64,000 nucleotides of DNA from an uncultured Gammaproteobacteria bacterium (GTDB lineage Bacteria; Pseudomonadota; Gammaproteobacteria; SZUA-152). The stretch spans positions 20,578-84,577 of the forward strand of contig CAJVYS010000001.1 in assembly GCA_913009875.1 (NCBI GenBank), given 5' to 3'. The translations under genes and the position numbers were made by a program. This document shows, piece by piece, positions 11,437-64,000 of this stretch. The notes under the pieces were generated by a model, which did no database searches, had not been told where the DNA came from, and saw nothing but the letters and a program-made list of their open reading frames with translations. Position 1 is the first letter of the stretch, and each line of letters begins with the position of its first letter.

Positions 11437-11610
11437 GTAGGTTGGGGTGAATGTTTTTTTATGAACCCCAACATGCCAGAACAACAATCCACCTCAAAAA
11501 CCATGTTCAAGCAATCACAAACAAATCCATTTCAATTTTCAAAGCCAAAAAATATCCACGTTCCGCGTTATGAACGTGTTGGGGTTCGTGCCTCCCTCCC
11601 TCCAACTTAC
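11437..11610. repeat. Long REPIN, family C, right copy of the direct repeat
   Basis: Same orientation and similar spacer as 7981-8149; 3' REP degenerate. Confidence 0.85.
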
Positions 11611-11614
11611 CGAA

Positions 11615-33034: not shown

Positions 33035-33136
33035 AGTGACACCCTCCGGTGATTCTTTTTAGTACCTTAGAAATAATTTTCTGCGCATTTTGTAGAAAAT
33101 TATTTTTTAGTGAAGGTACTTATCCTGTTTATGGGG

Positions 33137-33736: not shown

Positions 33737-33765
33737 TTCTTGCCTCCGATTTCCGTTAGGAACGG

Positions 33766-35031: not shown

Positions 35032-35047
35032 GGCTCTCTCCTAGCGA

Positions 35048-38995: not shown

Positions 38996-39074
38996 TCACC
39001 CCGTACCAATAATATCGATTTATAGATTTTTTCTTCACCAGCCCTGCGGACACCTGCATTTATCGAGACACTCA

Positions 39075-43012: not shown

Positions 43013-43128
43013 ATCCACAAGCTAACGCGATGTGAAACAGCGTCCTGAAACCGGAACACATGCACTTTCTATCTTCATGGGATATCAACGTGACCAGTAT
43101 TCAAAAACCAACGGATTCAAAACGAGAT

Positions 43129-45597: not shown

Positions 45598-45691
45598 CGA
45601 CCCGGGACAGTCAACCCTGATAACGAAAATCCTGAATAAATAGCAAACCCCTCAACAACCCTGAAACAGAGCAAGCTGAAAGGAGCCACAC

Positions 45692-46426
45692 ATGAATAAG
45701 GCACTCACGGTATTTACCCTATTTGCAGCAGCCAGTCTTCCGTTAACGGCCGCAGCCTACAAGGTCGTGGATGTTGCCAACGGCGGCACCATCACTGGAA
45801 AAGTGAATTTTTCGGGAACCGACCCGGCGCCAAAAATCTACGCCATCACCAAGGACACCGATGCCTGCGGTACCGGTGATCGTGAAATTGATTTTGTCCG
45901 CGTCACCAATGGCGCCCTCAATGACACCGTGGTCTATCTGAAAAAGGTAAAATCCGGCAAGGATTTTTCGGCCGACATCAATAACCTCGAGGTCAACCAG
46001 AAGAAATGCGGCTTCATTCCCTTCCTGTCGGTGATGAAAAACAAAGACAAATTAGCGGTGCACAACTCAGACCCGGTGCTGCACAATATCCATACCTACG
46101 AACTTATCGGTAAGGCGAGAAAGACCGTCTTCAACATCAGTCAGCCACCGGAACTCACCGTCATCAAGAAGACCGTCAAGCTCAAGCGTGGCGCTGCCAT
46201 GAAGCTGGAGTGTGATGCCCACGACTTCATGCACGGTTATGTCTTCGTGGCCAAAAACCCCTACTTTGCCGTCGTTAAAGAGGACGGCAGCTTCGTCATC
46301 GACAATGTCCCCCCCGGCAACTACAAGATTGCCGCCTGGCACGGTCTCCTGGGCGAACAAAAGGGCAAGGTCACGGTGGATGCCGGCGGCAAGACCTCCA
46401 TCGATTTCACATTCAAGGGCAGATAA
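45692..46426 (+). CDS. Secreted cupredoxin-like protein with carboxypeptidase-regulatory-like domains
   Basis: Sec signal; HNIH ... CDAHDFM fits a type-1 Cu His/Cys/His/Met set. Confidence 0.7.
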   Translation: MNKALTVFTLFAAASLPLTAAAYKVVDVANGGTITGKVNFSGTDPAPKIYAITKDTDACGTGDREIDFVRVTNGALNDTVVYLKKVKSGKDFSADINNLEVNQKKCGFIPFLSVMKNKDKLAVHNSDPVLHNIHTYELIGKARKTVFNISQPPELTVIKKTVKLKRGAAMKLECDAHDFMHGYVFVAKNPYFAVVKEDGSFVIDNVPPGNYKIAAWHGLLGEQKGKVTVDAGGKTSIDFTFKGR

Positions 46427-46546
46427 TCGCTGGGATCTCTGAATGGATCTGGGCATGACAGGCTGCATGTCCACGATCCATGCCCGCCTCCTTAAACTGC
46501 TCAAGATCAAGTAACACATTGATATTTCAAGAGGAAAATAAATCTC

Positions 46547-46678
46547 ATGGCAAGCTACCGACTTCCCTTCCTGGGCCGGCGTCAGGCCACTGGTTTTGAC
46601 TATCTGGCACTGGTCGGTTTCTCAATCAACATGGCCGTGGTCGCAGTGATTGTCGCCCACTGGCTATCAAACCCATGA
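46547..46678 (+). CDS. 43-aa single-TM small protein (not in ORF track)
   Basis: MASYRLPFLGRRQATGFDYLALVGFSINMAVVAVIVAHWLSNP; GAGGA upstream. Confidence 0.55.
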   Translation: MASYRLPFLGRRQATGFDYLALVGFSINMAVVAVIVAHWLSNP

Positions 46679-46885
46679 AAAGCACCCCTTAATTCTACCG
46701 TTTTGGCAGACATAATTTGCCCTCAAAAGCGCTTTTTCACCGCCAAAATGGATCTATGTCAAAGAAAAACAGCACGATGCGACGGAAAATGGTATCGATG
46801 AAAGTCATGAAAAACCACTGAATGACCTTCATCAAGAGCCTGTTGCACGGCCGGATTTGACATTAATTCACACAGGGCAAGATGG

Positions 46886-49123
46886 ATGAATACGATGAAT
46901 GCACAACTGCAAACCCGCGTTAAACCCAGCACAGAAGAACAAGGGCCACTGCCGCTTCCCGAGTACCACCACATTCTGCTGGCGGTGGACTCATCGGATC
47001 ACTCCAACCGCAGTCTGCAGGATGCCGTGCAACTGGCCGGCCTGTGGAACGCCGACATCACCGGCGCCCACGTCTACGCCGCCAAACTGCACGATGTGCG
47101 TTTCCGCCAAATGGAAGGTGGGCTACCCGAGCAATTCCGCGAAGAAGATGAACTGGAAAGACAGCGCGATGTGCACGATGACCTCATCACCCGCGGGCTG
47201 TCCATTATTACCGACTCTTACCTGGATCATTCCGAACGGCAATGCCAGACGGCAAACCTGACCTTCAAACGCTGCAGCCTGGAAGGCAAGAATTACCGGG
47301 AACTGGCGGCTGAAACCAATAATGGCCAATATGATTTATTGGTTCTGGGCGCACTGGGCTTGGGCGCCGTACAAGGCAGCCGCGTGGGTACCGTGTGTCT
47401 GCGTGTGGTACGTCGCAGCAATATCGACACCCTGGTCATCAAGGAGCCCGGCCGTTCCATCACTGACGGGCCGATCGTGGTGGCCGTTGATGGCTCCAGC
47501 CGGGCCTATGGTGGATTGCTGACGGCATTAGCGCTGGGGGAACAATGGCAGGTGCCGGTCAAGGTCATCGCCGCCTTCGACCCCTACTATCACTACGTTG
47601 CCTTCAATCGCATTGCCGATGTGCTCTCGGAAGAGGCTGGAAAGGTGTTTCGTTTTCAGGAGCAGGAAAAGCTTCACGAGGAAATCATCGACTCGGGTCT
47701 GGCAAAAATTTATCAGGGTCATCTGGAGATTGCCGAGAGCATCGCCCGCGACCACGGCTTCGAGCACGGCTTTGAAACCAAACTTCTGGATGGCAAACCT
47801 CACGACGCCATCGAGAAATACCTCAAAGAGGTGAACCCTTCTCTGCTGGTAATCGGCAAGCTGGGCATCCATGCCGACGCCGATCTCGACATCGGCGGCA
47901 ATACCGAAAACCTGCTCCACAACACCGGCTGCGCGCTGCTAATCAGTCAGCGGGAATTCCAGCCGCGAGTGGAAGTCATTGCCGAATCCACCACCTCCTG
48001 GACCACCCAGGCGGAAGAACGCATGGCCAGGGTACCCGAGTTTGTGCAGGGCATGGCGAAGATGGCTATTCTGCGTTATGCCCAGGAACGCGGTCATACC
48101 GTCATTACCGAAAGCATTGTCGAAGAAGCCACCGCACAGCTATGCCCCGGCCACGCCAAAGAGGCCATGGCGGATATCGTCGCCGCCCACGACGCTGGCG
48201 AGCTGGCGAGAAAACCCATCGAAGAGCTGGTCATGCGCTGGTCGGACGATGCCACGGCGCGCCTGTTGACCATCGACGATTTGCCGCTGCGCGGCAACCT
48301 CAGCATGCGGGCGGAGAAAAAGGCCCGGGTCGAGGGTGCTGAGCGAGTGGAGCTGGTACATATCGCGGCCTTCCTCGATATGCCTGAGCTGGTGAAAGAC
48401 ACCAACCCGCCTCCCGTCGAGGAAACAGTGGCAGCCGAGCCCCGGGCCGACGAGGCACTGAACTGGAACGCCGCCGCCCTTGCCCGCCTGATGCGGGTGC
48501 CCGAAGGCTTCATGCGTGATGCCTGTAAGCAACGGGTCGAAGAATACGCGCACGAAACAGGCGAAACCGACATTACCCTGTCGGTAGCCGAAGCCGGCCT
48601 GCAACGGGCGCGCGAGACGATGATGGCGCAGATGAAGGCCGAACCCGGCAGTGTCCCCGAGGCCGTCGCCAACGCCAAGCCCGGCACCTGCCCGTTCGGC
48701 CACAGCGCCACGGAAGAAACCGCCGAGGACAGCGCCACCCCCTGGAGCGAAGAGGCGAAACAGCGTCTGCAAAAGGTGCCCGAAGGCTTCATGCGCGACC
48801 TCACCCGCCAGCGCATCGAGGCCTATGCGCAGCGCAACGGGATGACGGAAATCACCCCGCAGCTGATCGCCGAGAAATACCGCGAATGGGGCGATGGCTC
48901 GGAAAAACTGCAGCGCCAGCTCGACTGGAGCGACGAGGCCCTGCAGCGCATCGAGCGTATCCCTGACTTCGTGCGCGGCATGGTGGTGAAGGAAGTGGAA
49001 CGTTGCGCCCGCGAGCAGGGCATCGACACGGTCACTCCGGCATCCCTCAGCAAGGCCATGGGCCGCTGGGAGGACATGGGCCAGTTCCATTCCGAGTCCA
49101 ACCCCGATCTCTATAAAGGCTGA
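46886..49123 (+). CDS. Tandem universal stress protein domains fused to five PCP_red-like modules
   Basis: ILLAVDSS..S and IVVAVDGSS USP starts; repeats W...A..R...VP..F.R......E..A...G. Confidence 0.8.
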   Translation: MNTMNAQLQTRVKPSTEEQGPLPLPEYHHILLAVDSSDHSNRSLQDAVQLAGLWNADITGAHVYAAKLHDVRFRQMEGGLPEQFREEDELERQRDVHDDLITRGLSIITDSYLDHSERQCQTANLTFKRCSLEGKNYRELAAETNNGQYDLLVLGALGLGAVQGSRVGTVCLRVVRRSNIDTLVIKEPGRSITDGPIVVAVDGSSRAYGGLLTALALGEQWQVPVKVIAAFDPYYHYVAFNRIADVLSEEAGKVFRFQEQEKLHEEIIDSGLAKIYQGHLEIAESIARDHGFEHGFETKLLDGKPHDAIEKYLKEVNPSLLVIGKLGIHADADLDIGGNTENLLHNTGCALLISQREFQPRVEVIAESTTSWTTQAEERMARVPEFVQGMAKMAILRYAQERGHTVITESIVEEATAQLCPGHAKEAMADIVAAHDAGELARKPIEELVMRWSDDATARLLTIDDLPLRGNLSMRAEKKARVEGAERVELVHIAAFLDMPELVKDTNPPPVEETVAAEPRADEALNWNAAALARLMRVPEGFMRDACKQRVEEYAHETGETDITLSVAEAGLQRARETMMAQMKAEPGSVPEAVANAKPGTCPFGHSATEETAEDSATPWSEEAKQRLQKVPEGFMRDLTRQRIEAYAQRNGMTEITPQLIAEKYREWGDGSEKLQRQLDWSDEALQRIERIPDFVRGMVVKEVERCAREQGIDTVTPASLSKAMGRWEDMGQFHSESNPDLYKG

Positions 49124-49127
49124 CACG

Positions 49128-51149
49128 ATGTCCGACAACGACCTCTTCCTGCTGGCCATCAACCTGACCCGGCGTTGCAATCTGGCCTGTGACCACTGTT
49201 ATCTCGACGCCAACACCCTGCAAAATGGCAGCCCCGACGAACTGAGCCGCGAAGAGGTCTGCCACCTGCTCGATGACATCGCCGCGCGCGGCACCGATGT
49301 GATGGTCGTACTCACCGGCGGCGAACCGCTGATACGCCCCGATCTGGAGCTTCTCATCAACCATGGTAGTCGCCTCGGCCTGTCCATGGTGGTGGGTACC
49401 AATGGCGTCATGCTCACCGACAAACGTGTGCAATCGCTCAAGCTCGCCGGCGCCCTGGGCATGGGTATCAGTGTCGATTCACTCGATCCCCACCAACACG
49501 ATCAATTCCGCGGCCGCAGCGGCGCCTGGGAAAAAACCCTGGCCGGTATCGAGGCCTGCCGCCGTCACGACCTGCCCTTCCAGGTGCACTTCTCCGTCAC
49601 CGAGGCCAACGCCAACGAGGTGCCGGCGATGATCGACTTCGCCCGTGCCAGCGGCGCACGGGTGTTGAACATCTTCTTTCTGGTCTGCACCGGGCGCGGC
49701 GAATCCATGTCCGACATCAGCCCCATCACCTATGAGCGAGTATTGAATCAACTGGTGGCGGCGCAGAGCGAAAACCACGAGCTGATGATCCGCGCCCGTT
49801 GTGCGCCACACTTCAAGCGCATCGCCTATGAACAGGATCCCCAGTCCCCCCTCACCCGGGCCGAGGGCTACGAGGGCGGCGGCTGTCTGGCGGGCATTCA
49901 TTACTGCCGGATTACTCCCGAGGGCGATATCACCGCCTGCCCCTATATTCCCGACAGCGAGGGCAATATCCGCGAAACCCCCTTCTGGCAGACCTGGGAA
50001 GAGTCACCGACCTTCGCCTCGTTGCGTGATCCCTCGTTGAAGGACAAGTGCGGCCAGTGCGAATACCAGAAACTGTGCGGCGGCTGCCGCGCCCGGCCGC
50101 TGGCAATGGGTGGCAACCTCATGGACACCGACCCCTGGTGCAGCTACCTGCCGCAGGGCGGCAAGGTAATCCAACCATTAGTAGAGACCCCCTCGACCAT
50201 CACCTGGTCGCCGGAGGCCGAACAACGCCTGCAGCGCATCCCCTCCTTCCTGCGCAAGATGGTGAAGAAGCGCACCGAGGCCCATGTGCAGGAGTTGGGT
50301 GAACAGCAGGTCACCGTGGCGCACATGTCCACCCTGGCCGCCAAGCGTTTCGGCGATGCCGGACCGCTGGGCATGCCCGATCAGGCCGCCGCCAAATCCC
50401 CCTTCGACGAGGCTAGCAAGGAACTGCCCTGGAGTCAGGAGGCGCGTGAGCGTCTGGCCGGCATGCCGGCCTTTTTGGCCGAGGGCGTGCGCGCCGTGGC
50501 CGAGGACGTGGCCCGCGCCGAGGGTCGTCTGGAGGTCAACATCAAGCTGCTGGACCGGCTGGAGGCCGAGGACCGGCAGGTGCGCCGGTTCGACTGGTCC
50601 AGCGAGGCCGAGGCTGCAGTGGAGGAATGCTTGGCCGACAAGCCCCCCCAGGTGCGCATGTTTGTCGCCCCGGCGCTGGAGGCCGAGGCCGAGCAGATCA
50701 CCAAGAAACGTCGTGCGACCACGGTGGCAGCAGAGGACGTGCAGCAGGCCATGGCCGTCTTCACCGGTGGCGTGGAATGGTCCGATGAGGCCGCCAAACG
50801 GGTCGCCAGTGCCCCTGATTTTGTCCGTGCCGGTATCAAAAAGGCGGCTGAGTTCAACGCCCGCCGGGAAGGTTTGGATGTCATCGGATCCACCGACCTC
50901 ACACGATTCCGCAATCGCGCCATGATGCGCGCGGTGCAGCGCATGAAGGGCTTCGGCATGACCGAACTGAGCTTTGACGCCTTCGATATCGCCAAGGTCA
51001 AGGTGCCGCGCCTGAAGGAAAACCCGGAGGCGGTAAAGCGCTTCAGCAGCATCCGCGAGTTTGTCGATGCACGCGAACACCCCGGAGAACTGCTGGGGCA
51101 GGAGCTGCTGGCGGAGATGAAAGAAAAGTTGAAAGGTAATGTTAAATGA
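49128..51149 (+). CDS. Radical SAM/SPASM protein (AhbC/AhbD/NirJ-like) fused to four PCP_red-like modules
   Basis: CNLACDHC, LTGGEPL; SPASM C..G..YC.ITPEG...C...C..C.Y..LCGGCRAR...DPWC. Confidence 0.85.
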   Translation: MSDNDLFLLAINLTRRCNLACDHCYLDANTLQNGSPDELSREEVCHLLDDIAARGTDVMVVLTGGEPLIRPDLELLINHGSRLGLSMVVGTNGVMLTDKRVQSLKLAGALGMGISVDSLDPHQHDQFRGRSGAWEKTLAGIEACRRHDLPFQVHFSVTEANANEVPAMIDFARASGARVLNIFFLVCTGRGESMSDISPITYERVLNQLVAAQSENHELMIRARCAPHFKRIAYEQDPQSPLTRAEGYEGGGCLAGIHYCRITPEGDITACPYIPDSEGNIRETPFWQTWEESPTFASLRDPSLKDKCGQCEYQKLCGGCRARPLAMGGNLMDTDPWCSYLPQGGKVIQPLVETPSTITWSPEAEQRLQRIPSFLRKMVKKRTEAHVQELGEQQVTVAHMSTLAAKRFGDAGPLGMPDQAAAKSPFDEASKELPWSQEARERLAGMPAFLAEGVRAVAEDVARAEGRLEVNIKLLDRLEAEDRQVRRFDWSSEAEAAVEECLADKPPQVRMFVAPALEAEAEQITKKRRATTVAAEDVQQAMAVFTGGVEWSDEAAKRVASAPDFVRAGIKKAAEFNARREGLDVIGSTDLTRFRNRAMMRAVQRMKGFGMTELSFDAFDIAKVKVPRLKENPEAVKRFSSIREFVDAREHPGELLGQELLAEMKEKLKGNVK

Positions 51150-52796: not shown

Positions 52797-53132
52797 ATGG
52801 CCATACCGAAACAGGCCAACCTCCCGCAACCCGCCGCACCCTATCTTTTTCTGCGTGTTACCGGGGCGGTATTATTGATCATGCTGCTGATTTCGGTATG
52901 GGCTAGGTGGTACGGTCAGCAGGTCTCCCTGCCGCGTTACTGCGAGGATCCGCAGGGCACAGTGCAACACCTCGAAAAGGTATTGGTGGAAAAACGTCCT
53001 GCCGGCGATGAGGCGCGCCGCCCCTACATTATTGCCGCCAAGATACTCTTTCTTTTACCGCGTCATCCGGAAGAAGGACAGACGGCCTATCTCACTCGCA
53101 TCCGCACCCACATCCAGGATACCTGCCGGTGA
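52797..53132 (+). CDS. Small membrane-anchored hypothetical protein
   Basis: One TM, periplasmic part with two Cys; stop overlaps kinase start (GTGA). Confidence 0.6.
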   Translation: MAIPKQANLPQPAAPYLFLRVTGAVLLIMLLISVWARWYGQQVSLPRYCEDPQGTVQHLEKVLVEKRPAGDEARRPYIIAAKILFLLPRHPEEGQTAYLTRIRTHIQDTCR

Positions 53133-55723
53133 ACACGAGCATTCAGAGTCGTGATCGCCCCCCCGCCCTGAGCGGACGCTTTCTGCTGATCTTTCTACCC
53201 CTGAGCACCCTGCTGGTCGCCATCGGCGTCAGTCATTACTACGCCGAGATGCGGCTGGCACGGGTCAGTCTGGAAAGCAATGAAATACAAAACGTGGCAC
53301 TGGCACAAAAAGGAATTACCAGTGAGATGCGCGCCGTCATCTCCGACCTCACCTTCCTCGCCAAACTCAATGAACTCTGGGGCCTTTTGGATGACCCCAA
53401 CAATAACTCCGCGCGCCAGAACCTGTCGCAGGAATTTCTCTACTTCAGCGAGAAAAAAGGTATCTATGACCAGATCCGTTTTTTGTCGGCGGACGGCATG
53501 GAAATCATCCGCATTAATTACAACCAGGGTCAGCCGCACATCGTTGGGCAAGATCAATTACAAAACAAGGGTGATCGATATTACTTTAAAGAGGCCATGG
53601 CACAAGACATCGGTGGCGTCTATATGTCACCTTTCGACTTGAATGTCGAAGATGGGCAAGTTGAAAACCCCTTTCGGCCGGTGATTCGCTTCGCCACTCC
53701 TCTGTTCAATAGTCAGGGAGAAAAAAAAGGCGTGTTGATGTTCAACTTCCGTGGTGAACGACTGCTGCAGAGTTTTCATCTGGCCGCCCCCAATATCGAT
53801 GATCACCTCAACCTCATTGATACCAAAGGCTACTGGCTCAGCGGCCCCCGCCCGGAAGACGAATGGGGGTTCTTTATGGGACGAAAACGTTCATTTGCTG
53901 AAACCTTTCCCGCTGCCTGGCAACGGATATTGAACGAAAACAGTGGCGGCTTCGTCACGGAAGAAGGCTTGTTCACCTTTTCCACCATCTACCCCATGGT
54001 CTCGGTCATGGAATTTTATGCCAATGCCGGTATGGGGTCGATCTCCTCAATCTTCGATGGCTATCAGGACACCAACCCCCGTTTTTGGAAAACCGTTTCA
54101 CATGTTCCAACCTCAATTCTGAATACCGCTTCGCAAAACTTTTTTCGCCAAAATCTCTTGCTCTATTCACTGGCGGGTCTTTTTTTACTGGCAGGATCCT
54201 TTATCGTTGCCCAGGCAGGCATTCGCAAACAACTCGAAGAGGCGCAAAGAAGCTTTGAACGCCGCTACCGTGACACACTGAAAAACATGCAATTGTCGGC
54301 AGTCACCCTGGATGCGGAGGGTCTTATTACCTTCTGCAATGATTGCCTTCTTAAATTGACAGGTTGGCGGCGAGAAGAAGTTATCGGGAAAAACTGGTTT
54401 GATCTTTTTGTGACACCACAGGATCGGCAACAGGCACATACTTCCTTTGCGGAAATTATCAACGGCAATGCCTCGCCACACACGATTGAAAGCCATATTG
54501 CGACGAAGTCCGGCGAGACATTACTCTTTTCCTGGGCCTCCACTCTCTCTTTCAGCCGTCTTGGAAAAATATCCACACTGACCAGCATTGGCCAGGACAT
54601 TACCCTGCAGAACGAGCATGAAGAACGCCTGCGAAAATTGTCCCGAGCCGTCGAGCAAAGTCGAAACTCGGTGATGATTACCGACATCGACGGTCATATT
54701 GAATATGTCAATCCGCGCTTTAGCGAGGTGACGGGCTACAGCGCCGAAGAAGTGACTGGCAAGACACCGAGACTCTTCAAATCCGGAGAGACCAGCGACA
54801 CGGATTATGACCAACTCTGGAAAACCATCATCCAGGGCAATGAATGGCGTGGTGTGTTCCACAATCGCAAGAAAAACGGTGAGTTCTATTGGGAAGATAC
54901 CCTGATCTCCCCCATACGCAATGAACAGGGTGAAATCACCCATTTTCTCGCCATCAAGGAAGACATCACTGAGCATGTGCGGCTAAAAGAGGAGGTAGAA
55001 GAACGCAACCGGGAACTGGCAAAAAACCAGACACTGACAGCCATGGGACGAATGGCCACCATGATTGCTCATGATCTGCGCAACCCGCTTTCCTCCATCA
55101 AGATGACCTTGCAGATATGGGGAAAGCGTGCCGAGGGGGACTGGGGTGAAGAGGCTGCAGAGATGAAACAAATCTCACTGGATCAGGTACGCTACATGGA
55201 AACCATTCTCGCCGACCTGTTGACCTTTGCTCGCCCCGACGCCCTGAGTCCGGAGTGGCTGGATGTAAAAAAGCTGCTCACCAGTGCCATCAATACCACA
55301 CAAAAGGAGCTACAAGAACGCGGCGCCAGGATCACCGTGGACTACCAGCCACAGCTACCGACGGTACATGGCGATGCCACCAAATTACGGCAGGCATTCA
55401 GTAACCTGATCACAAACGCCCTGGACGCTACCGACGACGTAAACCACGTTCCGCAAATCCGCATCCGCGCCTTAATGGAGGTTAATGACGCGACACCGGC
55501 AATTCGCATTGATATCTGCGACAACGGTGGCGGTATCGAGCCGGGGCTGAATGGCAAGTTGTTTGAGCCATTCTTCACCACTCGCGCCAAGGGCACGGGT
55601 CTGGGCCTGCCCATTGTCAAGCGCATCCTCGACCAGCATCATAGCCAGATCAGCTTGCACGCAAACAAGAGTGGCGGCACCTGTGCCAGTGTCACCTTAC
55701 CGATAGGACCCATTGAGTCATGA
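53129..55723 (+). CDS. Sensor histidine kinase (periplasmic Cache-like, 2 PAS, HisKA, HATPase)
   Basis: Two TM, YDQIRFL..DG.E.IR, PAS repeats, AHDLRNPL, NLITNA, DNGGG, FFTTR.KGTGLGL. Confidence 0.93.
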   Translation: MNTSIQSRDRPPALSGRFLLIFLPLSTLLVAIGVSHYYAEMRLARVSLESNEIQNVALAQKGITSEMRAVISDLTFLAKLNELWGLLDDPNNNSARQNLSQEFLYFSEKKGIYDQIRFLSADGMEIIRINYNQGQPHIVGQDQLQNKGDRYYFKEAMAQDIGGVYMSPFDLNVEDGQVENPFRPVIRFATPLFNSQGEKKGVLMFNFRGERLLQSFHLAAPNIDDHLNLIDTKGYWLSGPRPEDEWGFFMGRKRSFAETFPAAWQRILNENSGGFVTEEGLFTFSTIYPMVSVMEFYANAGMGSISSIFDGYQDTNPRFWKTVSHVPTSILNTASQNFFRQNLLLYSLAGLFLLAGSFIVAQAGIRKQLEEAQRSFERRYRDTLKNMQLSAVTLDAEGLITFCNDCLLKLTGWRREEVIGKNWFDLFVTPQDRQQAHTSFAEIINGNASPHTIESHIATKSGETLLFSWASTLSFSRLGKISTLTSIGQDITLQNEHEERLRKLSRAVEQSRNSVMITDIDGHIEYVNPRFSEVTGYSAEEVTGKTPRLFKSGETSDTDYDQLWKTIIQGNEWRGVFHNRKKNGEFYWEDTLISPIRNEQGEITHFLAIKEDITEHVRLKEEVEERNRELAKNQTLTAMGRMATMIAHDLRNPLSSIKMTLQIWGKRAEGDWGEEAAEMKQISLDQVRYMETILADLLTFARPDALSPEWLDVKKLLTSAINTTQKELQERGARITVDYQPQLPTVHGDATKLRQAFSNLITNALDATDDVNHVPQIRIRALMEVNDATPAIRIDICDNGGGIEPGLNGKLFEPFFTTRAKGTGLGLPIVKRILDQHHSQISLHANKSGGTCASVTLPIGPIES

Positions 55724-57183
55724 ACACGGCGATGAAAGATTTGAGTTCCATAACGGGTACAGAAGACAGGATGTCCATGAGTAAAGGACATATATTAATC
55801 GTTGACGACGATGTCGCCAGCTGCAGAACGCTACAGCTGCATCTGCGCAGTGAAGGCTATGATGTCGACATGGCCCATAGTGTCGACGAAGGATTAGCCG
55901 CGGCTCATGTTCGGCGTCCCGACCTGCTTATTCTCGACATCCGCATGCCGGGCAAGTCCGGCCTGGAAGGACTGCCCGAATTCAAGCAAACCTTCTCCGC
56001 CCTCCACATCATCATGATTACCGCATTCCATGACATGGACAGTACGATCCAGGCCATGCAAAACGGTGCCGAAGACTATATCCACAAGCCCATCGATATC
56101 GATGAGCTGGACAGCACCATCTCTCAGATTCTGGCCCCCGAAGCTCAATCGACGGTGAAAGCAGATCACAATGAACCCATCACTGACGGCAACACCATGG
56201 TGGGTCGTTCACGTGCCATGAAAGAGGTGTTCAAAACCATTGGCCTGGTTGCGTCCAGCCCGGTAACGGTATTGATCACCGGCGAATCCGGCACCGGCAA
56301 GGAACTGGTGGCCCGGGCCACCCACCGTGCAGGACAGAGAGCCGGTGGTGCCTTTGTCGCCATTAATTGCGCAGCGCTGGTCGAAAACCTTCTGGAATCA
56401 GACATGTTCGGCCATGAAAAGGGATCCTTCACCGGTGCAGTGAGCCGTCAATCCGGTAAATTTGAGCAGGCCAACCACGGCAGCATCTTCCTCGACGAAA
56501 TTGGCGAGCTTTCCCTCACCATGCAGGCCAAATTATTACGCGTGCTGCAAGAAAAGGAATTTACCCCGATTGGCGCCAAGACCCCCCAGCGAACCAATGC
56601 CCGTGTTATTGCCGCTACCAATGTGAATCTGGCTGAGCGTGTACGCGAAGGAAGGTTTCGCGAAGACCTGTACTACCGCTTGCGGGTAGTGACCATTCAT
56701 CTGCCGCCACTGCGCGAGCGCCGCGAAGATATCGAAGATCTGGTGCAGACCCTGATTTCGCGCATCAACCAACAAATGCATGCCGGCGTTAAACAGATCT
56801 CCGCCGATGTTATGGAGTGCCTGAAAAAATACGACTGGCCAGGCAACGTTCGCGAATTGTCCAATACGCTGGAAAAGGCGATAGCCCTCTGCCCGGGCTC
56901 GGTCATCACCCGCAATCTGATATCAGATATTTGTAGTTGTGGTACACCCATGGCCGATAGCGACCATCGCCCGCTGACGGAATTAAGCCTGGAAGAAATT
57001 GAAGGTGCTCATGTAAAACGGGTGCTGGAGGCAACCCGCTGGCACAAGGGGCGCGCCTGCGACATCCTCGGCGTCTCCCGGCCACGCCTGCGACGCATGA
57101 TCAAACACTTCGGGCTGACACCACCTGACGGCACGGAAGAGGATGATGATCACGGAGATGAAAATGCGGTATCCCACGACTAG
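55720..57183 (+). CDS. Sigma54-dependent response regulator (REC-AAA-HTH)
   Basis: ILIVDDD, LDIRMPG, GESGTGKE, ESDMFGHEKGSFTGA, WPGNVREL, Fis-type HTH. Confidence 0.95.
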   Translation: MNTAMKDLSSITGTEDRMSMSKGHILIVDDDVASCRTLQLHLRSEGYDVDMAHSVDEGLAAAHVRRPDLLILDIRMPGKSGLEGLPEFKQTFSALHIIMITAFHDMDSTIQAMQNGAEDYIHKPIDIDELDSTISQILAPEAQSTVKADHNEPITDGNTMVGRSRAMKEVFKTIGLVASSPVTVLITGESGTGKELVARATHRAGQRAGGAFVAINCAALVENLLESDMFGHEKGSFTGAVSRQSGKFEQANHGSIFLDEIGELSLTMQAKLLRVLQEKEFTPIGAKTPQRTNARVIAATNVNLAERVREGRFREDLYYRLRVVTIHLPPLRERREDIEDLVQTLISRINQQMHAGVKQISADVMECLKKYDWPGNVRELSNTLEKAIALCPGSVITRNLISDICSCGTPMADSDHRPLTELSLEEIEGAHVKRVLEATRWHKGRACDILGVSRPRLRRMIKHFGLTPPDGTEEDDDHGDENAVSHD

Positions 57184-58244: not shown

Positions 58245-59810
58245 TCAACCCTCTTGGGCCGGATGAATGCCTAAGCGTTTTAACAGCCGATAAAAATTAC
58301 TCCTGTCCAAGCCAAGGTTCTTCGCTGTAGCCGCAAGGTTGTTGTTATGCGTAGCCAACTGCTGCGTAATGAGATCACGCTGAAAGTGTTCGACGGCTTC
58401 TTTCAAATCCACTTTGGCTTGCAGAGGTGCGGGGCTGTCTTCCGGTAATTCATTGTCTTGCGGCAGATCTACCTTGGAAATATCCAGGTTCGCCAAGGAA
58501 ATAGTAACGAACCGTGACTGACGGCCCTGGGCAGTCACCGCTTTGAGTGCGGCACGGCTTATCAGATGTTCCAGTTCACGTATATTGCCGGGCCAGTCAT
58601 ATTTCAATAATGCTCGCTTGGCATCACTGCCAAGCCGCAACCCAGCGACGCCCAAACGGTATTGATTTTTCTCCAGAAAAAAACCCGCGAGTAACAGTAT
58701 GTCATTGCCCCGTTCACGCAGCGGCGGCACATGTACCGGGTAAACCGTGAGACGATGATAAAGGTCGGCTCGAAAACGCCCCTCAGAGACTTCCCGCCTC
58801 AGGTCACGGTTAGTGGCAGCGACAATGCGCACATCGACTTTGATATGGCGATCACTACCCACCCGCTGGATTTCCCCATTTTGCAGTACACGTAACATTT
58901 TGGCCTGAATCGATAAGGGCAGCTCACCGATTTCATCAAGAAATAAAGTGCCACCGTTGGCCAGTTCAAATTTACCCATGCGGTCGGCAAGCGCACCGGA
59001 GAATGCTCCCTTGACATGACCAAACAATTCGCTCTCAGCGATATTTTCCGGCAGTGCAGCACAGTTAATATAGACCATGGCCTGTTCCGCACGGGCCGAC
59101 AATACGTGTACTTGATGCGCCACCAATTCTTTACCGACACCCGTTTCACCGAGTATCAGTACCGCAAGATCAGACTGGGCAATTACATCAATCTCCCGTT
59201 TAAGTTCAAGCATCTGTGAGCTTATACCCACCATATCTATCTGGCCACCCTCCTCAAGCAGGGTACGGGTTACCTGATTCACCTGCTTTACCCGTGTTTC
59301 CAGGGCGGATATCAGATCAGCTGCTTTTACCGCGGCTTCGCTCAGGCTGATAAAGGTGCGCAGTTCGATGGCACTGATGTCATCAAAGGTGCCCGGACGC
59401 AAGGCATCCATTGTCAATACACCCCAAGGCAAATCGTCGATGTAAAGTGATGCCCCCATGCAGTCATGCACGTCTAGCGGGGTATCGTCCGGTTCCACCA
59501 GGCCATCATAGGGGTCGGGCAAATCTGAGTCCGCAGCAAAACGCACCGGCGTATGCGAATGCAGAATTTTCTCCAGGCGCGGTTGTTCATCCACTCTAAA
59601 GCGGCGCCCCAGAGTGTCATTTGAGAGTCCATCTACCGCCAGGGGGATTAGGCTGTTTCCCTCAAGCTTGAGCAGCGAGATCGCATCCACAGGGAAGATT
59701 TTCCTAAACGCGCTCAATAAACGCTGATATCTCTGCTCTGTGGTTAGCTTGCTGGAAAGGTCTGCAACCACGGAAATCAATGCACTACAAAATTGGGGAT
59801 TGGCTGTCAT
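58245..59810 (-). CDS. norR: NO-sensing sigma54 activator NorR
   Basis: GAF with [22 protein letters not shown] (non-heme Fe ligand positions), [25 protein letters not shown]; likely start MTANPQ at 59810. Confidence 0.9.
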
Positions 59811-59862
59811 TCTAACCTCATAGCTGTCATTTGCACAACATTCACATTGTTGTGATATCAAC
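59806..59862. promoter_or_regulatory. Three NorR-type boxes GT-N7-AC
   Basis: GTCATTCTAAC 59806, GTCATTTGCAC 59826, GTGATATCAAC 59852; first overlaps the norR start codon. Confidence 0.7.
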
Positions 59863-59903
59863 AACAGTAGTGCATAACCCCTTTATAAACAACTAATTAA
59901 TTT

Positions 59904-59921
59904 CTGGCACGAAAAATGATA
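59904..59921 (+). promoter_or_regulatory. Putative sigma54 promoter for nirK operon
   Basis: CTGGCACGAAAAATGATA: perfect -24 element, -12 is GA not GC. Confidence 0.5.
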
Positions 59922-59990
59922 CAGGCAAATAGGGTGAAGTGCGACAGGCGCAAATCACTTATAAACACTATCAATCATAGGAGCAGTTAA

Positions 59991-60932
59991 ATGAGAACGA
60001 ATACGATTGCCTTAATCATGGCCGCGACCACCCTGCTGCCATCGGCGGTGGTAATCGCCAGGACCGTCCAGGTTGAAATTCCTGTTATCGAGAAAAATCT
60101 GGAGGTTGATAATGCAGGCAAGCAGCAGAAGATGTGGACCTTTGGGGGAAAAATCCCCGGCCCACTGGTGCGGGTCACTCAGGGGGATGTGGTTAATTTC
60201 ACCCTGGTCAATCAAAAGGGTAATAAGCAGAGTCATTCCATGGATTTCCATGCCGCCCGGGTGGATGTGCTGGATGAATTCGCCGCCGTCAAGCCCGGCA
60301 AGTCAAAAAACTTTCAGTTCAGTGCGGACTACCCCGGTGTGTTTATTTATCACTGCGGGGCCGAGGCGATGTCAGAGCATATCGCCCGTGGCATGTACGG
60401 GGTCATCATCGTTGATCCCAAAGAGGGCTACAGCGATGACTATCCAAAGCCCGATCGTGAATATGTGATTGTGCAGGGTGACCTGTTTAAAGATGGCACC
60501 AAGCCCAATGACATCACGAAAAATATTGGCAAGGTTGCCAATCTTATCAACGGCAAGGTTTTTCACTATGACCCCGTGCACGATTCCAATGCCAGTCTGG
60601 CACTGGAGTCCAAGCCTGGGGAGCGAGTGAGAATTTTCTTTGTCAATGCACAGATCAATGACAGTGTGGCTTTCCATCCTATCGCAGGCATTTGGGATCG
60701 GGTCTGGGATAACGGCAATCCCAAGAATGTCTCTTATGGCATTCAAACATACGACGTTCCGCCTGCCCATGGTGTGACATTTGATTTGATCAGCCCTGCC
60801 GATCGTCCAACCAATAATGCCCTGGTTGACCATCAGATGAAGAATGCTCTGACTGGTGCGATCACCGTATTAATGAACCATGACGAAGCAGACCCGGAAC
60901 TGGGTCGTAACGGTAATTTAATTCCCCGTTAA
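59991..60932 (+). CDS. nirK: Copper-containing nitrite reductase (short form)
   Basis: HSMDFH, YHC........H...GM, AFHPI, LVDH: all T1/T2 Cu ligands plus catalytic Asp/His positions; Sec signal. Confidence 0.85.
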   Translation: MRTNTIALIMAATTLLPSAVVIARTVQVEIPVIEKNLEVDNAGKQQKMWTFGGKIPGPLVRVTQGDVVNFTLVNQKGNKQSHSMDFHAARVDVLDEFAAVKPGKSKNFQFSADYPGVFIYHCGAEAMSEHIARGMYGVIIVDPKEGYSDDYPKPDREYVIVQGDLFKDGTKPNDITKNIGKVANLINGKVFHYDPVHDSNASLALESKPGERVRIFFVNAQINDSVAFHPIAGIWDRVWDNGNPKNVSYGIQTYDVPPAHGVTFDLISPADRPTNNALVDHQMKNALTGAITVLMNHDEADPELGRNGNLIPR

Positions 60933-60975
60933 TTAGCCAATGCCACGGATGGCTAACCTTATTGAGGACAGGTCA

Positions 60976-61680
60976 ATGATTATTTTCAACAAGTCAATCT
61001 CACTTAGCCTGTTAGCTGGCACTTTGATGTTTGGGCTGGCTCCGGCTTATGTGGCCGCGGCAGAGGCGCAATTTGTTTTAAACAATTGCGCATCCTGTCA
61101 TGTATTAACACAAACTGAAAAGGATACTCTTCAAAGTTATATGTCCAGAAAAGGCCCCGACTTATATTACGCTGGTAATAAATATCGTGAAGCCTGGATG
61201 GTTAAGTGGTTACAGAATCCTCAGAGAATTCGCCCCGGCGGAATGTTTTTTGGTAACCACACCGAGGTAACGGATGAAGGTGATGTCATCAAAGAAGGCA
61301 GCCTTCCTGATCCTGTCCACGTGAAGCTCTCTAAAGAAGATGCACAGGACAGCGCTGCTTACCTGATGACGTTGACAGCAAAGAGTGACTTGCTGGCAGA
61401 GGAAAATTACACACCGAAAAAAATATCCAAACGAATGGGCGCTATGAACTTTAGCAAGTTCAAGGGCTGCTCCTCATGCCATCGTGATCGGCCGGATTAT
61501 GGTGGTGTGTCCGGCCCTGAGCTTTACACGGCTGCCGAACGCTTGCAGGAAAACTTTATGACCTCTTATATCCGCAACCCACAAGTGTGGGAAAGCAAAA
61601 GTCTGATGCCCAACCGGCATTTACCGGACAAGGAGGTTTCCAAACTGGTGGATTATTTAAAACTGCTGGAGGAGAAGTAA
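60976..61680 (+). CDS. Di-heme cytochrome c (NcgB-like)
   Basis: Signal peptide, CASCH and CSSCH; likely start at 60976 with GAGGA RBS. Confidence 0.85.
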   Translation: MIIFNKSISLSLLAGTLMFGLAPAYVAAAEAQFVLNNCASCHVLTQTEKDTLQSYMSRKGPDLYYAGNKYREAWMVKWLQNPQRIRPGGMFFGNHTEVTDEGDVIKEGSLPDPVHVKLSKEDAQDSAAYLMTLTAKSDLLAEENYTPKKISKRMGAMNFSKFKGCSSCHRDRPDYGGVSGPELYTAAERLQENFMTSYIRNPQVWESKSLMPNRHLPDKEVSKLVDYLKLLEEK

Positions 61681-61682
61681 CC

Positions 61683-62045
61683 ATGAAAACTTCAATACTT
61701 GCGCTTACCTTGCTGGCAGCAACCACTGGCAGCCCCGCACTGCTGGCCGCTGATGCAGAAAATGGTCGAACCCTGTACCGAGGTTATTGTGCGCAATGTC
61801 ATGGCCTGGAAGGCGATGGTTTTGGTGTGAATGCCCCGGATATGGAAGTCGCACCCAAGGATCATACGGAGACTGCGGAGATGCAGGCACGTAGCGATGC
61901 CGATCTCTTTAAGGCCATAAAACAGGGCGGCAAGGCCGTGGATAAATCTGTGCTGATGCCCAACTGGGACGCCAACATGAGTGACGATGAGATTCGTGAC
62001 CTGGTGGCCTACCTGCGTGTTCTTTCCAATACAGGAGCTAAATGA
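61683..62045 (+). CDS. Mono-heme cytochrome c (NcgC-like)
   Basis: Signal peptide, CAQCH, LMPNW distal Met; likely start MKTSIL. Confidence 0.88.
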   Translation: MKTSILALTLLAATTGSPALLAADAENGRTLYRGYCAQCHGLEGDGFGVNAPDMEVAPKDHTETAEMQARSDADLFKAIKQGGKAVDKSVLMPNWDANMSDDEIRDLVAYLRVLSNTGAK

Positions 62046-63124
62046 TGAATATACGATACACAAAGGCTCTCAGCTATCTGGGTCTGTTGTTTTGTTTTGG
62101 GGCGGTGAGCATGGGTTCAGCCCAGGCGGAACTGCGTAAATTTGATCTCACCATTGAAGAGGTGGAATTGGAAATTGCACCGGGCTTTAAATCAAAGGTA
62201 TGGGCCTATAATGGCCAGGTTCCTGGCCCGTTACTGCGTGTGAAAGAAGATGATGACGTGGAAATCACCCTGATAAACAATACCACGCTCAACCATACCG
62301 TGCACTGGCATGGTATCCATCAAAAAGGCACCTGGCGAAGTGATGGTGTGCCAGGCGTAACGCAGCTATCTGTTGAGCCGGGTGAAAATTACGTCTACCG
62401 CTTCAAGGCCGACCGCGTGGGCAGCCTGTGGTACCACTGTCATGTTAATGTACCTGAGCATGTAGGGCTGCGTGGCATGTGGGGCCCCATTATTGTCGAT
62501 CCTAAAGATCCGCTACCTATTGAAGAAGAGGTGACCAAAGAGGCCATATTAATGTTCTCCGGGTGGAATTCCGAGGTCGCCATGACTTATGGCAAGGGCG
62601 GTGAGCCAGGGGAAGTTCTGGATTACTTCTCTATCAACGGGAAGTCCTTTCCTCTCACGCAACCGCTACGTGTTAAAGAGGGTGATGTGGTTCGTTTAAG
62701 ACTCTATGGAGCAACCCTCCCGGTGGCATTTCATACCCATGGTCACGATATGTTTGTCACCCATCAGGATGGCCTACCACTGGCTTCGCCCTATTGGGCC
62801 GATGTGGTCGATATCCCCAGCGGTGGGCGTCTGGACGTGATCGTTCGTATGGACAACCCGGGGATCTGGATCAACCATGACCATATCGAACAGCATATCA
62901 GCAACAAGGGTAAGGCTCCGGGTGGCGCGGCACTGATCATTGAATATGAAGGTGTGGAAAAAGATGACTGGTACGTATGGAAAAATAAGGAATTCCAGAG
63001 CGATTTCTACATGAGCGACACGATGGGAAAAGGTTATGGCCTGTTTGACAATGAACTCTTCAAAGGAGATGAAATCAAGGTACAGAGAAGAAAGAAAAAG
63101 AAAGCAAAATCATCTCACGAATGA
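62042..63124 (+). CDS. Two-domain multicopper oxidase (NcgA-like, type C)
   Basis: HTVHWHG, WYHCH....H....GM in domain 1; FHTHGH and HDHIEQH (no Cys) in domain 2. Confidence 0.85.
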   Translation: MMNIRYTKALSYLGLLFCFGAVSMGSAQAELRKFDLTIEEVELEIAPGFKSKVWAYNGQVPGPLLRVKEDDDVEITLINNTTLNHTVHWHGIHQKGTWRSDGVPGVTQLSVEPGENYVYRFKADRVGSLWYHCHVNVPEHVGLRGMWGPIIVDPKDPLPIEEEVTKEAILMFSGWNSEVAMTYGKGGEPGEVLDYFSINGKSFPLTQPLRVKEGDVVRLRLYGATLPVAFHTHGHDMFVTHQDGLPLASPYWADVVDIPSGGRLDVIVRMDNPGIWINHDHIEQHISNKGKAPGGAALIIEYEGVEKDDWYVWKNKEFQSDFYMSDTMGKGYGLFDNELFKGDEIKVQRRKKKKAKSSHE

Positions 63125-63139
63125 GATGCAGCTTGACAG

Positions 63140-63172
63140 CAAGCAGCCCGTCACTCGGGCTGCTTGTTTTTT
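63140..63172 (+). terminator. Rho-independent terminator
   Basis: CAAGCAGCCCG/CGGGCTGCTTG stem then T6. Confidence 0.85.
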
Positions 63173-63267
63173 GTCGATATATTTCATAAGCAATGATAAA
63201 TCAACATATGCTTTTCTCCGCTTATTACACACTATGTGCAGCCTTATATTACTAACGGAAAGAGAAA

Positions 63268-64000
63268 ATGAGAAAAATAATACGAGCGTTACCGGCACTT
63301 TACATGATGTTTGTTTCATCGCATGCATTGGCGCTGGGTGACTCACACCACAAGCATCATAATCATACGAACCAGTTATACAGTCCAATTGGTGTGATGG
63401 ATGATCATTCTCACAAACAAGGTGGATGGATGCTCTCCTATGCTTACAGAACCATGTATATGGAAGGTAATCGTGACGGTGTCAATGATGTCGGCGTTAC
63501 ACAGGTACTGAATGACTTTATGGTATCGCCGACAGAAATGAGCATGCAGATGCACATGTTTGGCGTAATGTACGGAGTGACTGATAGAGTCATGATCATG
63601 GGAATGATGCCATATAAGATGATATCTATGGATCACATCAACCGCATGGGGTCACGGTTTACCACTGAGTCAGAAGGCATTGGTGATGTGAAATTATCTG
63701 GAATCTATACACTGCATGAACAGGGCAGTCAGAAGACTTTACTAAATATCGGCATCGCTCTTCCTTCCGGATCAATTGACGAAAGAGGTGATACGCCCAA
63801 TGGAGAAAAACAAAAACTTCCTTATCCGATGCAGCTGGGATCGGGCACATATGATTTGTTGCCGGGTATTGCCTATGCTGATCAGCGAGGCAGCTGGGCA
63901 TGGGGAAGTCAGCTAAAGGCTACCATTCGCCTGGGCAATAACAACAATGGCTATCGGCTAGGAAATGAATACAACCTAACCCTGTGGGGTGCGCGTAAAA
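63268..64000 (+). CDS. His/Met-rich putative outer-membrane beta-barrel transporter (5' part; runs off window edge)
   Basis: Manual translation: MRKIIRALPALYMMFVSSHALA-LGDSHHKHHNH...SPIGVMDDHSH.QGGWMLSY...MSMQMHM...GIGDV...LPYPMQLGSGTYD; open to the window end. Confidence 0.75.
   Translation, partial: MRKIIRALPALYMMFVSSHALALGDSHHKHHNHTNQLYSPIGVMDDHSHKQGGWMLSYAYRTMYMEGNRDGVNDVGVTQVLNDFMVSPTEMSMQMHMFGVMYGVTDRVMIMGMMPYKMISMDHINRMGSRFTTESEGIGDVKLSGIYTLHEQGSQKTLLNIGIALPSGSIDERGDTPNGEKQKLPYPMQLGSGTYDLLPGIAYADQRGSWAWGSQLKATIRLGNNNNGYRLGNEYNLTLWGARK

Follow-up and report, generated by a model that had tools for sequence, protein, structure and literature searches.

A NorR-linked nirK, cytochrome and multicopper oxidase operon, predicted to be NO-inducible, and its possible role in NO and nitrite tolerance

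The 64-kb stretch of DNA analysed here (the window) carries an operon of four genes, encoding a copper nitrite reductase (NirK), a di-haem and a mono-haem c-type cytochrome and a two-domain multicopper oxidase. The operon spans 59991-63124 and is divergent from norR (Table 1). An earlier reading of the DNA (the sequence-only reading) had reported these five genes, and all are present where it placed them. The cistrons abut or overlap; the oxidase start overlaps the stop of the mono-haem cytochrome gene (ATGA). A Shine-Dalgarno-like AGGAGC at 59979 precedes nirK, and the mono-haem cytochrome start was set at ATG 61683, which is preceded by a GGAG motif and yields a signal peptide. The four genes are predicted to be transcribed as one mRNA up to the strong terminator at 63138, and all four products are probably exported, which would make them a periplasmic copper and haem electron-transfer module. 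The partial gene beyond the terminator is probably a separate transcript, and its tie to the nirK module is uncertain. Its homologues lie directly 3' of the oxidase gene in 6 other loci, and its orthologue in locus L002 has a weak match to Pfam Phenol_MetA_deg.

Table 1. Genes and regulatory features of the norR-nirK locus (window coordinates)
Feature	Position	Strand	Description
norR	58245..59810	-	NO-sensing sigma-54 enhancer-binding protein; GAF + AAA+ + HTH_8; 521 aa from ATG 59810
NorR box 1	59806..59816		GTCATTCTAAC; offset -99 from promoter
NorR box 2	59826..59836		GTCATTTGCAC; offset -79 from promoter
NorR box 3	59852..59862		GTGATATCAAC; offset -53 from promoter
Possible IHF site	59887..59899	+	AAACAACTAATTA; putative, 8/9 matches to WATCAANNNNTTR
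Sigma-54-type promoter	59905..59920	+	TGGCACGAAAAATGAT; TGGCAC-N5-ATGAT
nirK	59991..60932	+	Copper nitrite reductase, N. europaea class; 313 aa; Sec signal peptide
Di-haem c-type cytochrome	60940..61680	+	NcgB-like, periplasmic; 246 aa; CASCH + CSSCH
Mono-haem c-type cytochrome	61683..62045	+	NcgC-like; ~120 aa; CAQCH
Two-domain multicopper oxidase	62042..63124	+	NcgA-like; 360 aa; Pfam Cu-oxidase_3, Cu-oxidase_2, Cu-oxidase
Intrinsic terminator	63138..63178	+	13-bp stem, 8 G-C pairs, then T run; operon end
Partial gene, exits window	63268..64000	+	Outer-membrane beta-barrel-like protein, His-rich N-terminus

The best solved relative of the window NirK is the Nitrosomonas europaea enzyme (4KNS, E=1.8e-101), matched over the full length (residues 24-311). 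The model TIGR02376 also matches NirK over its full length, yet the score falls under the cutoff (187 vs 296). Across 14 homologues neither the copper ligands nor the catalytic Asp and His vary, and NirK of the N. europaea class is reportedly (Lawton 2013) a real nitrite reductase in vitro. The oxidase has its best matches in 2ZWN (2.9e-144) and, from N. europaea, 3G5W (1e-111). Its type-1 copper Cys falls within domain 1 (HCH...H...M), and it has the HxH motifs of the trinuclear cluster. The haem motifs, sizes and positions of both cytochromes fit NcgB and NcgC, of which they are candidate homologues. In a nirK cluster of similar composition, the cytochromes have 66-68% similarity to NcgB and NcgC.

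The regulator scores 734 bits against the NCBIfam NorR equivalog NF003451 (cutoff 476), and ten nirK-linked NorR homologues score 619-711 bits. It contains the Pfam domains GAF, Sigma54_activat and HTH_8, in this order, and is 49% identical to Escherichia coli NorR. The most likely start codon is the ATG at 59810, residue M19 of the ORF as listed; it lines up with the N-terminus of E. coli NorR and would leave an intergenic region of 180 bp (59811-59990). The iron-site residues R75, D96, D99, C113 and D131 (E. coli numbering) are all identical in the window protein, and each is kept in 41 or 42 of 42 aligned NorR sequences, including those of the window and 40 other loci. The full list of these residues is reportedly that of Tucker 2008; R75, D99 and C113 have literature support. 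Substitutions R75K, D99A and C113S disrupt the NorR iron centre. The sigma-54 contact loop is GAFSGA in the window protein and in 32 of the 42 sequences. Position 81, which is variable among nirK-linked NorRs, is His in the window and Arg in just two of the aligned proteins. In E. coli NorR, R81 is essential for GAF-mediated repression; since it is not conserved, the on/off switch of the protein may differ here.

The three GT-N7-AC boxes and the sigma-54-like promoter noted in the sequence-only reading are confirmed. Markov-shuffled sequence would be expected to contain the three-box arrangement 0.05 times; the 64 kb contains it once, and its offsets recur in other genomes. Across 40 loci that represent many families and several phyla (39 with divergent NorR, plus the window), a box is located at -97 to -102 in 27, at -77 to -80 in 38 and at -52 to -54 in 38. 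An equivalent promoter site, TGGCAC-N5-TTGnT, was found in all 39 divergent-NorR loci. The window site has the -24 GG and a weak -12 element, GA instead of the consensus GC, and this poor element (ATGAT) is shared with its two closest relatives. The putative IHF site lies in an A+T-rich stretch that separates box 3 from the promoter. Because box 1 covers the norR start codon (CAT at 59808-59810), NorR probably also regulates its own gene, limiting its own synthesis. The intergenic region contains no detectable sigma-70-type promoter and no FNR/DNR-type box (TTGAT-N4-ATCAA; best 7/10). An NsrR box is likewise absent (best 8/12), and the window has no Rrf2 gene. Given an enhancer and sigma-54 architecture that is position-conserved in 39 other species-level genomes, and intact iron-site residues, it is very probable that NorR activates the nirK operon directly, as had been proposed. 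Both NorR binding and NO induction are predicted here from DNA and protein sequence.

NirK of this type was found in 467 species-level genomes, and the 80 loci closest to the window NirK were compared. The order nirK, di-haem cytochrome, mono-haem cytochrome, oxidase is kept in every sufficiently long related locus except one (L057). The norR-nirK synteny to which the earlier reading had pointed is common: a NorR gene adjoins the operon in 43 of the 80 loci (39 of them divergent), while an NsrR-like Rrf2 regulator with an NsrR-type operator occupies its place in 26, proportions that are biased because the loci were chosen as most similar to the window NirK. NorR does stand in for the NsrR-type control known from N. 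europaea, as the sequence-only reading had suggested; the NsrR-like arrangement persists in those 26 loci. The NsrR-like proteins pass the cutoff of the Rrf2 superfamily only, not that of the NsrR equivalog. Their operator scores at least 10/12 in 23 of the 26 loci, and a score above 9 was seen in none of the 43 NorR loci. The NirK tree implies at least about 11 changes of regulator. NnrS, a known member of NO regulons, is encoded nearby in 11 loci.

The nearest relatives of the window are MAGs labelled Gammaproteobacteria and Ectothiorhodospiraceae. Other carriers include Porticoccaceae, Haliea, Pseudohongiella and Spongiibacteraceae, which are aerobic marine heterotrophs, and organisms with denitrifier-type names, Thioalkalivibrio denitrificans and Denitromonas halophila. 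The label "nitrifier-type" given in the sequence-only reading does not suit a module that is far commoner in non-nitrifiers. When all long ORFs were annotated with Pfam, the window yielded no NorB, NorVW, Hmp or Hcp, in agreement with that reading, and nor, nos and nar genes are neither linked in the window nor among the conserved neighbour families in the 10 kb flanking each of the 80 loci.

Because related genomes either share the NorR wiring, with the same box layout, or swap in an NsrR-like regulator and operator, NO-induced expression appears to be a conserved design feature, and the module looks like an NO response system rather than ordinary denitrification. We argue that this NirK clade serves as a stress module for NO or nitrite, because the operon always contains an O2-reducing oxidase and is accompanied by one of two types of NO-sensing regulator.

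On balance, we favor an NO-inducible operon encoding an NO and nitrite tolerance system that is active with O2 present, and regard this as reasonably probable. In the regulatory part of this model, which is well supported, NorR would be bound at the three enhancers (59806-59862), and nitrosylation of the non-haem iron in its GAF domain by NO would free the AAA+ domain. NorR would then open the sigma-54 promoter at 59905-59920, probably with the help of bent DNA in the A+T-rich spacer, and the four proteins would be made from a single mRNA ending at 63138. Electrons would pass between NirK (nitrite/NO couple) and the oxidase (O2/H2O couple) by way of the two cytochromes. Under NO stress the preferred net reaction would be NO to nitrite with electrons passing to O2, a direction we presume.

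The sequence-only reading had offered two options, positive feedback or an NO-oxidising detoxification system, and the sequence is compatible with both. NO removal is a reasonable reading of an operon that is constantly paired with an O2-reducing oxidase, has nitrosative-stress-type regulators and lacks a linked NO reductase, and it has precedents. All known NorR targets are NO-consuming or protective. N. europaea owes nitrite tolerance to nirK and ncgABC and is harmed by nirK when ncgABC is missing, and an NO-oxidising role has been suggested for its NirK. In Nitrobacter, NO consumption accompanies cluster expression. Counting against NO removal are the nitrite reductase activity reported for this NirK class, the intact catalytic Asp and His, and thermodynamics: by our own estimate, nitrite reduction is easier than NO oxidation with c-type cytochromes near +0.25 V.

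These same three points would suit ordinary respiratory (denitrifying) nitrite reduction with NO feed-forward, in which the cytochromes donate to NirK and the oxidase scavenges O2 or provides an alternative outlet. The regulation would also be familiar. Many denitrifiers switch on nirK or nirS through NO-sensing regulators, NsrR controls nirK or aniA, and NO induction through NorR would follow the logic of NnrR, DNR and NsrR at nir genes. The paradox seen earlier in an NO sensor driving an NO-forming enzyme was overstated, because NO-sensing regulators routinely switch on NO-forming nitrite reductases in denitrifiers. The carriers judged to be denitrifiers by name may indeed respire with this NirK. 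However, this explanation has to accommodate an oxidase that is invariably co-transcribed with nirK, the absence of linked or flanking nor, nos and nar, the missing FNR/DNR-type box in the window, and the many carriers from aerobic marine groups. Self-amplifying NO production would moreover be toxic absent a co-regulated sink, and in N. europaea nirK alone does harm. We consider the respiratory explanation rather unlikely.

Alternatively, the module could be an NO-insensitive electron outlet. NO poisons haem-copper oxidases, and the module would then re-oxidise the periplasmic cytochrome c pool, with the oxidase serving as a cytochrome c:O2 oxidoreductase, NirK providing a second sink (to nitrite) and the NO chemistry incidental. 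The predicted NO-dependent induction and the constant company of oxidase and cytochromes are consistent with this role, and the blue copper oxidase of N. europaea was reported to oxidise cytochrome c (DiSpirito 1985). It leaves unexplained both the constant membership of nirK in the operon and the toxicity of nirK without ncgABC in N. europaea, and we judge it improbable. Incidental adjacency, with nirK under another promoter and the true NorR target being an NO reductase, flavohaemoglobin or norVW elsewhere, draws on the classical targets (norVW, norB, hmp) and on the mere 64 kb of genome in view, but is highly improbable given a complete, position-conserved NorR enhancer and sigma-54 promoter directly 5' of nirK, three co-directional Haliea-type loci that keep the sigma-54 promoter and degenerate boxes before nirK, and the lack of a sigma-70-type promoter. 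NorR may also act on genes outside the window, but this target would still stand.

We therefore lean towards oxic NO and nitrite tolerance. A more specific form of this proposal, which we put forward tentatively, is that the four proteins constitute a periplasmic NO:O2 oxidoreductase in which NirK runs in reverse, the cytochromes act as carriers and the oxidase reduces O2. It would be a widespread aerobic NO detoxification system distinct from Hmp, NorVW and NorB and switched by NorR or an NsrR-like regulator.

The gene nirK is routinely counted as a denitrification marker, and many of the genomes with this clade come from aerobic marine groups. If it is a stress module, the reading of such nirK genes in metagenomes changes. 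If the NO:O2 oxidoreductase proposal is true, part of the nirK signal counted in oxic seawater would reflect NO consumption and not denitrification, and the module would be a concrete candidate for the missing NO oxidation step in bacterial nitrification. The operon would also add a new class of NorR target to norVW, norB, hmp, hcp, dnrN and nnrS. Cultured non-nitrifier hosts (Denitromonas halophila SFB-3, Cognatazoarcus halotolerans HKLI-1 and Haliea sp. E1-2-M8) bear on the long-standing idea that NirK and NcgABC consume NO.

The locus resembles E. coli norR-norVW in its divergent norR, its three GT-N7-AC boxes ~20 and ~25 bp apart 5' of a sigma-54 promoter, its A+T-rich IHF-type spacer and its conserved GAF iron-site residues. 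The norV boxes are at -111/-90/-66, and those of the window are ~12 bp nearer the promoter in otherwise the same layout. At norV all three NorR sites are essential and IHF binds between them and the norV start; E. coli NorR works both aerobically and anaerobically. The differences are the target, an operon for NirK, cytochromes and an oxidase instead of a flavorubredoxin NO reductase, a -12 element that at nirK loci is often TTGAT or ATGAT, a contact loop of GAFSGA instead of GAFTGA, and the non-conserved R81.

With the ncgABC-nirK clusters of N. europaea and Nitrobacter, the window shares the four protein types and an NO-sensing regulator. As the sequence-only reading had stated, the order differs: in those clusters it is ncgA-ncgB-ncgC-nirK, whereas in the window nirK leads and the oxidase gene closes the operon. 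Control lies with an activator (NorR, with sigma-54) in place of the Rrf2 repressor NsrR, and the host is a non-nitrifier with no amo or hao in the window. We infer that the module is a re-ordered, non-nitrifier version of ncgABC-nirK.

NO also induces nitrite reductase genes in the NnrR, DNR and NNR nir-nor regulons of denitrifiers, and NsrR controls such genes in Nitrosomonas and Neisseria. In contrast to NorR, however, NnrR, DNR and NNR are FNR/CRP-type proteins that use sigma-70 promoters and TTGAT-N4-ATCAA boxes and co-activate nor, which is not linked to nirK in the window. The closest solved relative of the oxidase is mgLAC (PDB 2ZWN), a metagenome-derived enzyme, given in its PDB entry as a two-domain type laccase / multicopper oxidase, that was studied as a laccase in isolation from its genomic context. 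The position of the window oxidase gene as the last cistron of an apparently NO-regulated nirK operon suggests that the natural substrate is cytochrome c rather than a phenol.

The sequence-only reading had described norR and a divergent four-gene set between positions 58245 and 63124, with three GT-N7-AC boxes and a sigma-54-like promoter between norR and nirK. All of these elements were located as described (see the table below). Across the 64 kb of the window there is a single instance of the three-box arrangement, compared with 0.05 occurrences expected from Markov-shuffled sequence. Promoter prediction in the norR-nirK intergenic region gave no sigma-70-type promoter, and FNR/DNR and NsrR boxes, also sought there, were rejected. 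Box 1 shares bases with the norR start codon, an arrangement suggestive of norR autoregulation. The conserved architecture strongly supports NO-dependent transcription of the nirK operon, which would be driven by NorR together with sigma-54.

Features of the window discussed in this section (sizes of individual proteins in amino acids, aa)
Feature	Position	Strand	Remarks
Low-GC island	8000-12000		37-43% GC vs ~58% around
Arsenite-oxidase-like pair	30323-36178	-	immediately preceded by two di-haem cytochrome c peroxidase/MauG-family genes
Redox trio	36587-42085	-	upstream of molybdoenzyme cluster
Redox-trio protein, 802 aa			c-type cytochrome domains fused to EB_dh haem-b domain
Redox-trio protein, 382 aa			cytochrome c
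Redox-trio protein, 621 aa			weak similarity to cytochrome bd subunit I; no NCBIfam match
HEAT-repeat protein (845 aa), then two large PCP_red proteins	43060-51149	+	
PAS histidine kinase and NtrC-type sigma-54 regulator	53129-57183		downstream of PCP_red genes
moaA	57255-58238		near arsenite-oxidase-like pair
norR	58245-59810	-	GAF, Sigma54_activat, HTH_8 (Pfam); NF003451 match
GT-N7-AC boxes	59806, 59826, 59852		between norR and nirK
IHF-like site	59887-59899		in A+T-rich spacer; 8/9 matches
Sigma-54-type promoter	59905-59920		TGGCACGAAAAATGAT
nirK	59991-60932	+	best solved relative N. europaea NirK 4KNS, E=1.8e-101, full length
Di-haem cytochrome c	60940-61680	+	
Mono-haem cytochrome c	61683-62045	+	
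Two-domain multicopper oxidase	62042-63124	+	2ZWN at 2.9e-144; N. europaea enzyme 3G5W at 1e-111
Terminator	63138		3' of oxidase; stem 13 bp
Outer-membrane beta-barrel-like protein	63268-64000	+	runs past window end; His-rich N-terminus

Because the gene junctions are tight (gaps of 2-7 nt or an overlap of 4 nt) and a terminator follows the oxidase gene, nirK, the two cytochrome genes and the oxidase gene are assigned to one operon. N-terminal hydrophobic stretches in all four products are read as signal peptides. The window NirK scores below the classical TIGR02376 cutoff, and its copper ligands and catalytic Asp and His are invariant across 14 homologues. An exact-protein look-up with this NirK returned no contig on record, and tblastn against a plasmid collection gave no match at 1e-40. 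Directly behind the oxidase terminator lies the beta-barrel-like gene, which has a homologue with a weak Phenol_MetA_deg match in a related locus (L002:5493-6512); homologues take the same position in 6 other loci. Its product may be copper-related or may form a substrate channel for the nirK module.

The window norR product scores 734 bits against the curated NorR model NF003451 (cutoff 476), a cutoff also passed by 10/10 NorRs sampled from related loci, and is 49% identical to E. coli NorR in an alignment with the E. coli locus (L081). This alignment places the norR start at the ATG at 59810 rather than the TTG at 59864. All of the iron-site residues R75, D96, D99, C113 and D131, a list partly confirmed by published work, are kept, and the sigma-54 contact loop of the window protein differs from that of E. 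coli NorR, reading GAFSGA. In E. coli NorR, R81 is required for GAF-mediated repression, whereas the window protein has His at this position. Among 42 NorRs the aligned residue is His in 19, Asp in 12, Asn in 5 and Arg in 2; given this lack of conservation, the off-state contact of nirK-linked NorRs may differ from that of the E. coli protein.

A survey of one genome per species yielded 467 genomes with a relative of the window NirK, and the 80 loci whose NirK is most similar to it were fetched with 10-kb flanks, a selection that biases the proportions that follow. These loci span Gamma-, Alpha- and Betaproteobacteria, Campylobacterota, Myxococcota, Gemmatimonadota and Acidobacteriota. In all sufficiently long loci but one, the operon runs nirK, di-haem, mono-haem, oxidase. 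The sole exception, L057 from a Myxococcota metagenome-assembled genome, has an Rrf2 gene upstream and runs di-haem, mono-haem, oxidase, nirK; its terminal nirK brings it nearer to the order seen in nitrifiers. NorR is encoded divergently and directly upstream of the operon in 39 of the 80 loci, co-directionally upstream (Haliea type) in 3 and by two copies downstream in 1 (L017). Carriers of the NorR type that are in culture include Denitromonas halophila SFB-3, Cognatazoarcus halotolerans HKLI-1 and Haliea sp. E1-2-M8. An NsrR-like Rrf2 gene stands beside the operon in 26, no regulator was recognized in the available upstream sequence of 5, and 6 loci were too short to tell.

When the 39 divergent loci were compared together with the window, the distances from the sigma-54 site to the boxes proved fixed: a box is present at -52 to -54 in 38/40, at -77 to -80 in 38/40 and at -97 to -102 in 27/40, against ~1% expected by chance per position window. 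The rarity of the three-box arrangement and its conserved offsets lead us to reject a chance adjacency of norR and nirK. A strict regular expression detected the architecture in 0/4 loci with non-divergent norR; direct reading of two Haliea-type loci, L039 and L051, revealed a retained sigma-54 promoter and degenerate boxes. In these two loci and in L041, all with co-directional norR, the sigma-54 promoter is separated from nirK by an inserted gene (L039:9436-9870, L051:8525-8911) whose product is a small, Gly-rich membrane protein (128-144 aa).

Initial detection of the Rrf2 regulators relied on an E. coli NsrR sequence, which served solely as a probe. All six sampled proteins passed the NCBIfam superfamily cutoff and missed every equivalog cutoff, the best specific model being NsrR in 4/6 and RirA in 2/6. 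Since just the superfamily cutoff was passed, we call these regulators NsrR-like and lean on operator evidence: 10-12 of the 12 positions of the NsrR operator consensus are matched upstream of nirK in 23/26 Rrf2 loci, and no match above 9 was found in NorR loci. On a neighbour-joining NirK tree, regulator type changed at least about 11 times, a parsimony count that is as rough as the tree itself.

Pfam annotation of every long ORF in the window gave no NorB, NorVW, Hmp or Hcp, in agreement with the earlier remark that NO-removing genes are absent from it. The neighbours are instead moaA, the PAS histidine kinase with its NtrC-type regulator, an arsenite-oxidase-like molybdoenzyme cluster and housekeeping genes. 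Neither an NO reductase nor another denitrification gene is a conserved neighbour in the flanks of the 80 loci. Flank families came from greedy ORF clustering; where GC content was high, this gave rise to antisense artefacts (clusters 4 and 8), and clearly identified clusters alone were used. NnrS, a recurrent member of NO regulons, is encoded in the 10-kb flanks of the operon in 11/80 loci (L004, L029, L032, L038, L040, L042, L044, L047, L060, L064 and L070; PF05940 at 2.9e-101 for the L070 copy).

Several other features of the window were recorded. The large subunit of the arsenite-oxidase-like pair (Rieske_3 and Molybdopterin domains) scores 405 bits with TIGR02693 (cutoff 359) and the small Rieske subunit 114 with TIGR02694 (cutoff 96); we take this gene set to match the idrABP1P2 signature of iodate reductase rather than a plain arsenite oxidase. 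The nearby redox trio is unusual, and a Pfam scan of the window's long ORFs gave no CydB-like family. The first large PCP_red protein carries four copies of the domain and the second a single copy; in one of the two proteins (745 aa) the fusion partners are universal stress protein domains, and in the other (673 aa) it is a radical SAM domain. The low-GC island, which encodes a 544-aa T5orf172/MUG113/DUF4041 protein and a DUF2971 protein, was probably acquired horizontally and is possibly defence-related.

With regard to function, we lean towards an NO-induced tolerance module. Tolerance or NO removal is favoured by N. europaea genetics (ncgABC; Beaumont 2005, via a citing paper) and Nitrobacter physiology, and by a proposal in the literature of possible NO oxidation by NirK. 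It is also favoured by regulators best known from nitrosative-stress regulons, by an O2-reducing oxidase in every operon and by the lack of a linked NO sink. Many carriers belong to groups known as aerobic heterotrophs, which we count on the same side. The rival explanation, ordinary respiratory reduction of nitrite with feed-forward by NO, appears rather unlikely; against tolerance or NO removal stand the intact nitrite-reductase active site, the names of some carriers, which indicate denitrifiers, and the cytochrome c partners, with which nitrite reduction is, by our estimate, thermodynamically easier. A specific case within the tolerance reading, an NO:O2 oxidoreductase, is put forward tentatively. 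The interest of the module, moderate at present, would rise to high should NO oxidation be demonstrated.

The module is a widespread new NorR target and a re-ordered, non-nitrifier form of ncg-nirK. What is new is NorR in the role of a nir inducer, for a module formerly tied to nitrifiers, and the repeated rewiring of this module between two types of NO-sensing regulator. Published NorR regulons comprise norVW, norB, hmp, hcp, dnrN and nnrS and do not include nirK; a search of open papers gave no description of a link between NorR and nirK or ncg, and the recent nirK phylogeny surveys checked mention neither NorR nor NsrR. Additional NorR targets may lie elsewhere in the genome, of which the window covers 64 kb. 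The first interpretation stands in part: NorR control of the nirK operon is upheld by the conserved architecture, and the paradox seen in it is overstated, since NO-sensing regulators (NnrR, DNR, NsrR) commonly induce NO-forming nitrite reductases. NnrR and DNR activate nir along with nor, while Nitrosomonas nirK and Neisseria aniA are under NsrR control. In E. coli, where NorR activates in aerobic and anaerobic conditions alike, each of the three NorR sites is essential, with IHF bound in the interval that separates these sites from the promoter; the box layout at E. coli norV (-66/-90/-111) is the same as that in the nirK loci.
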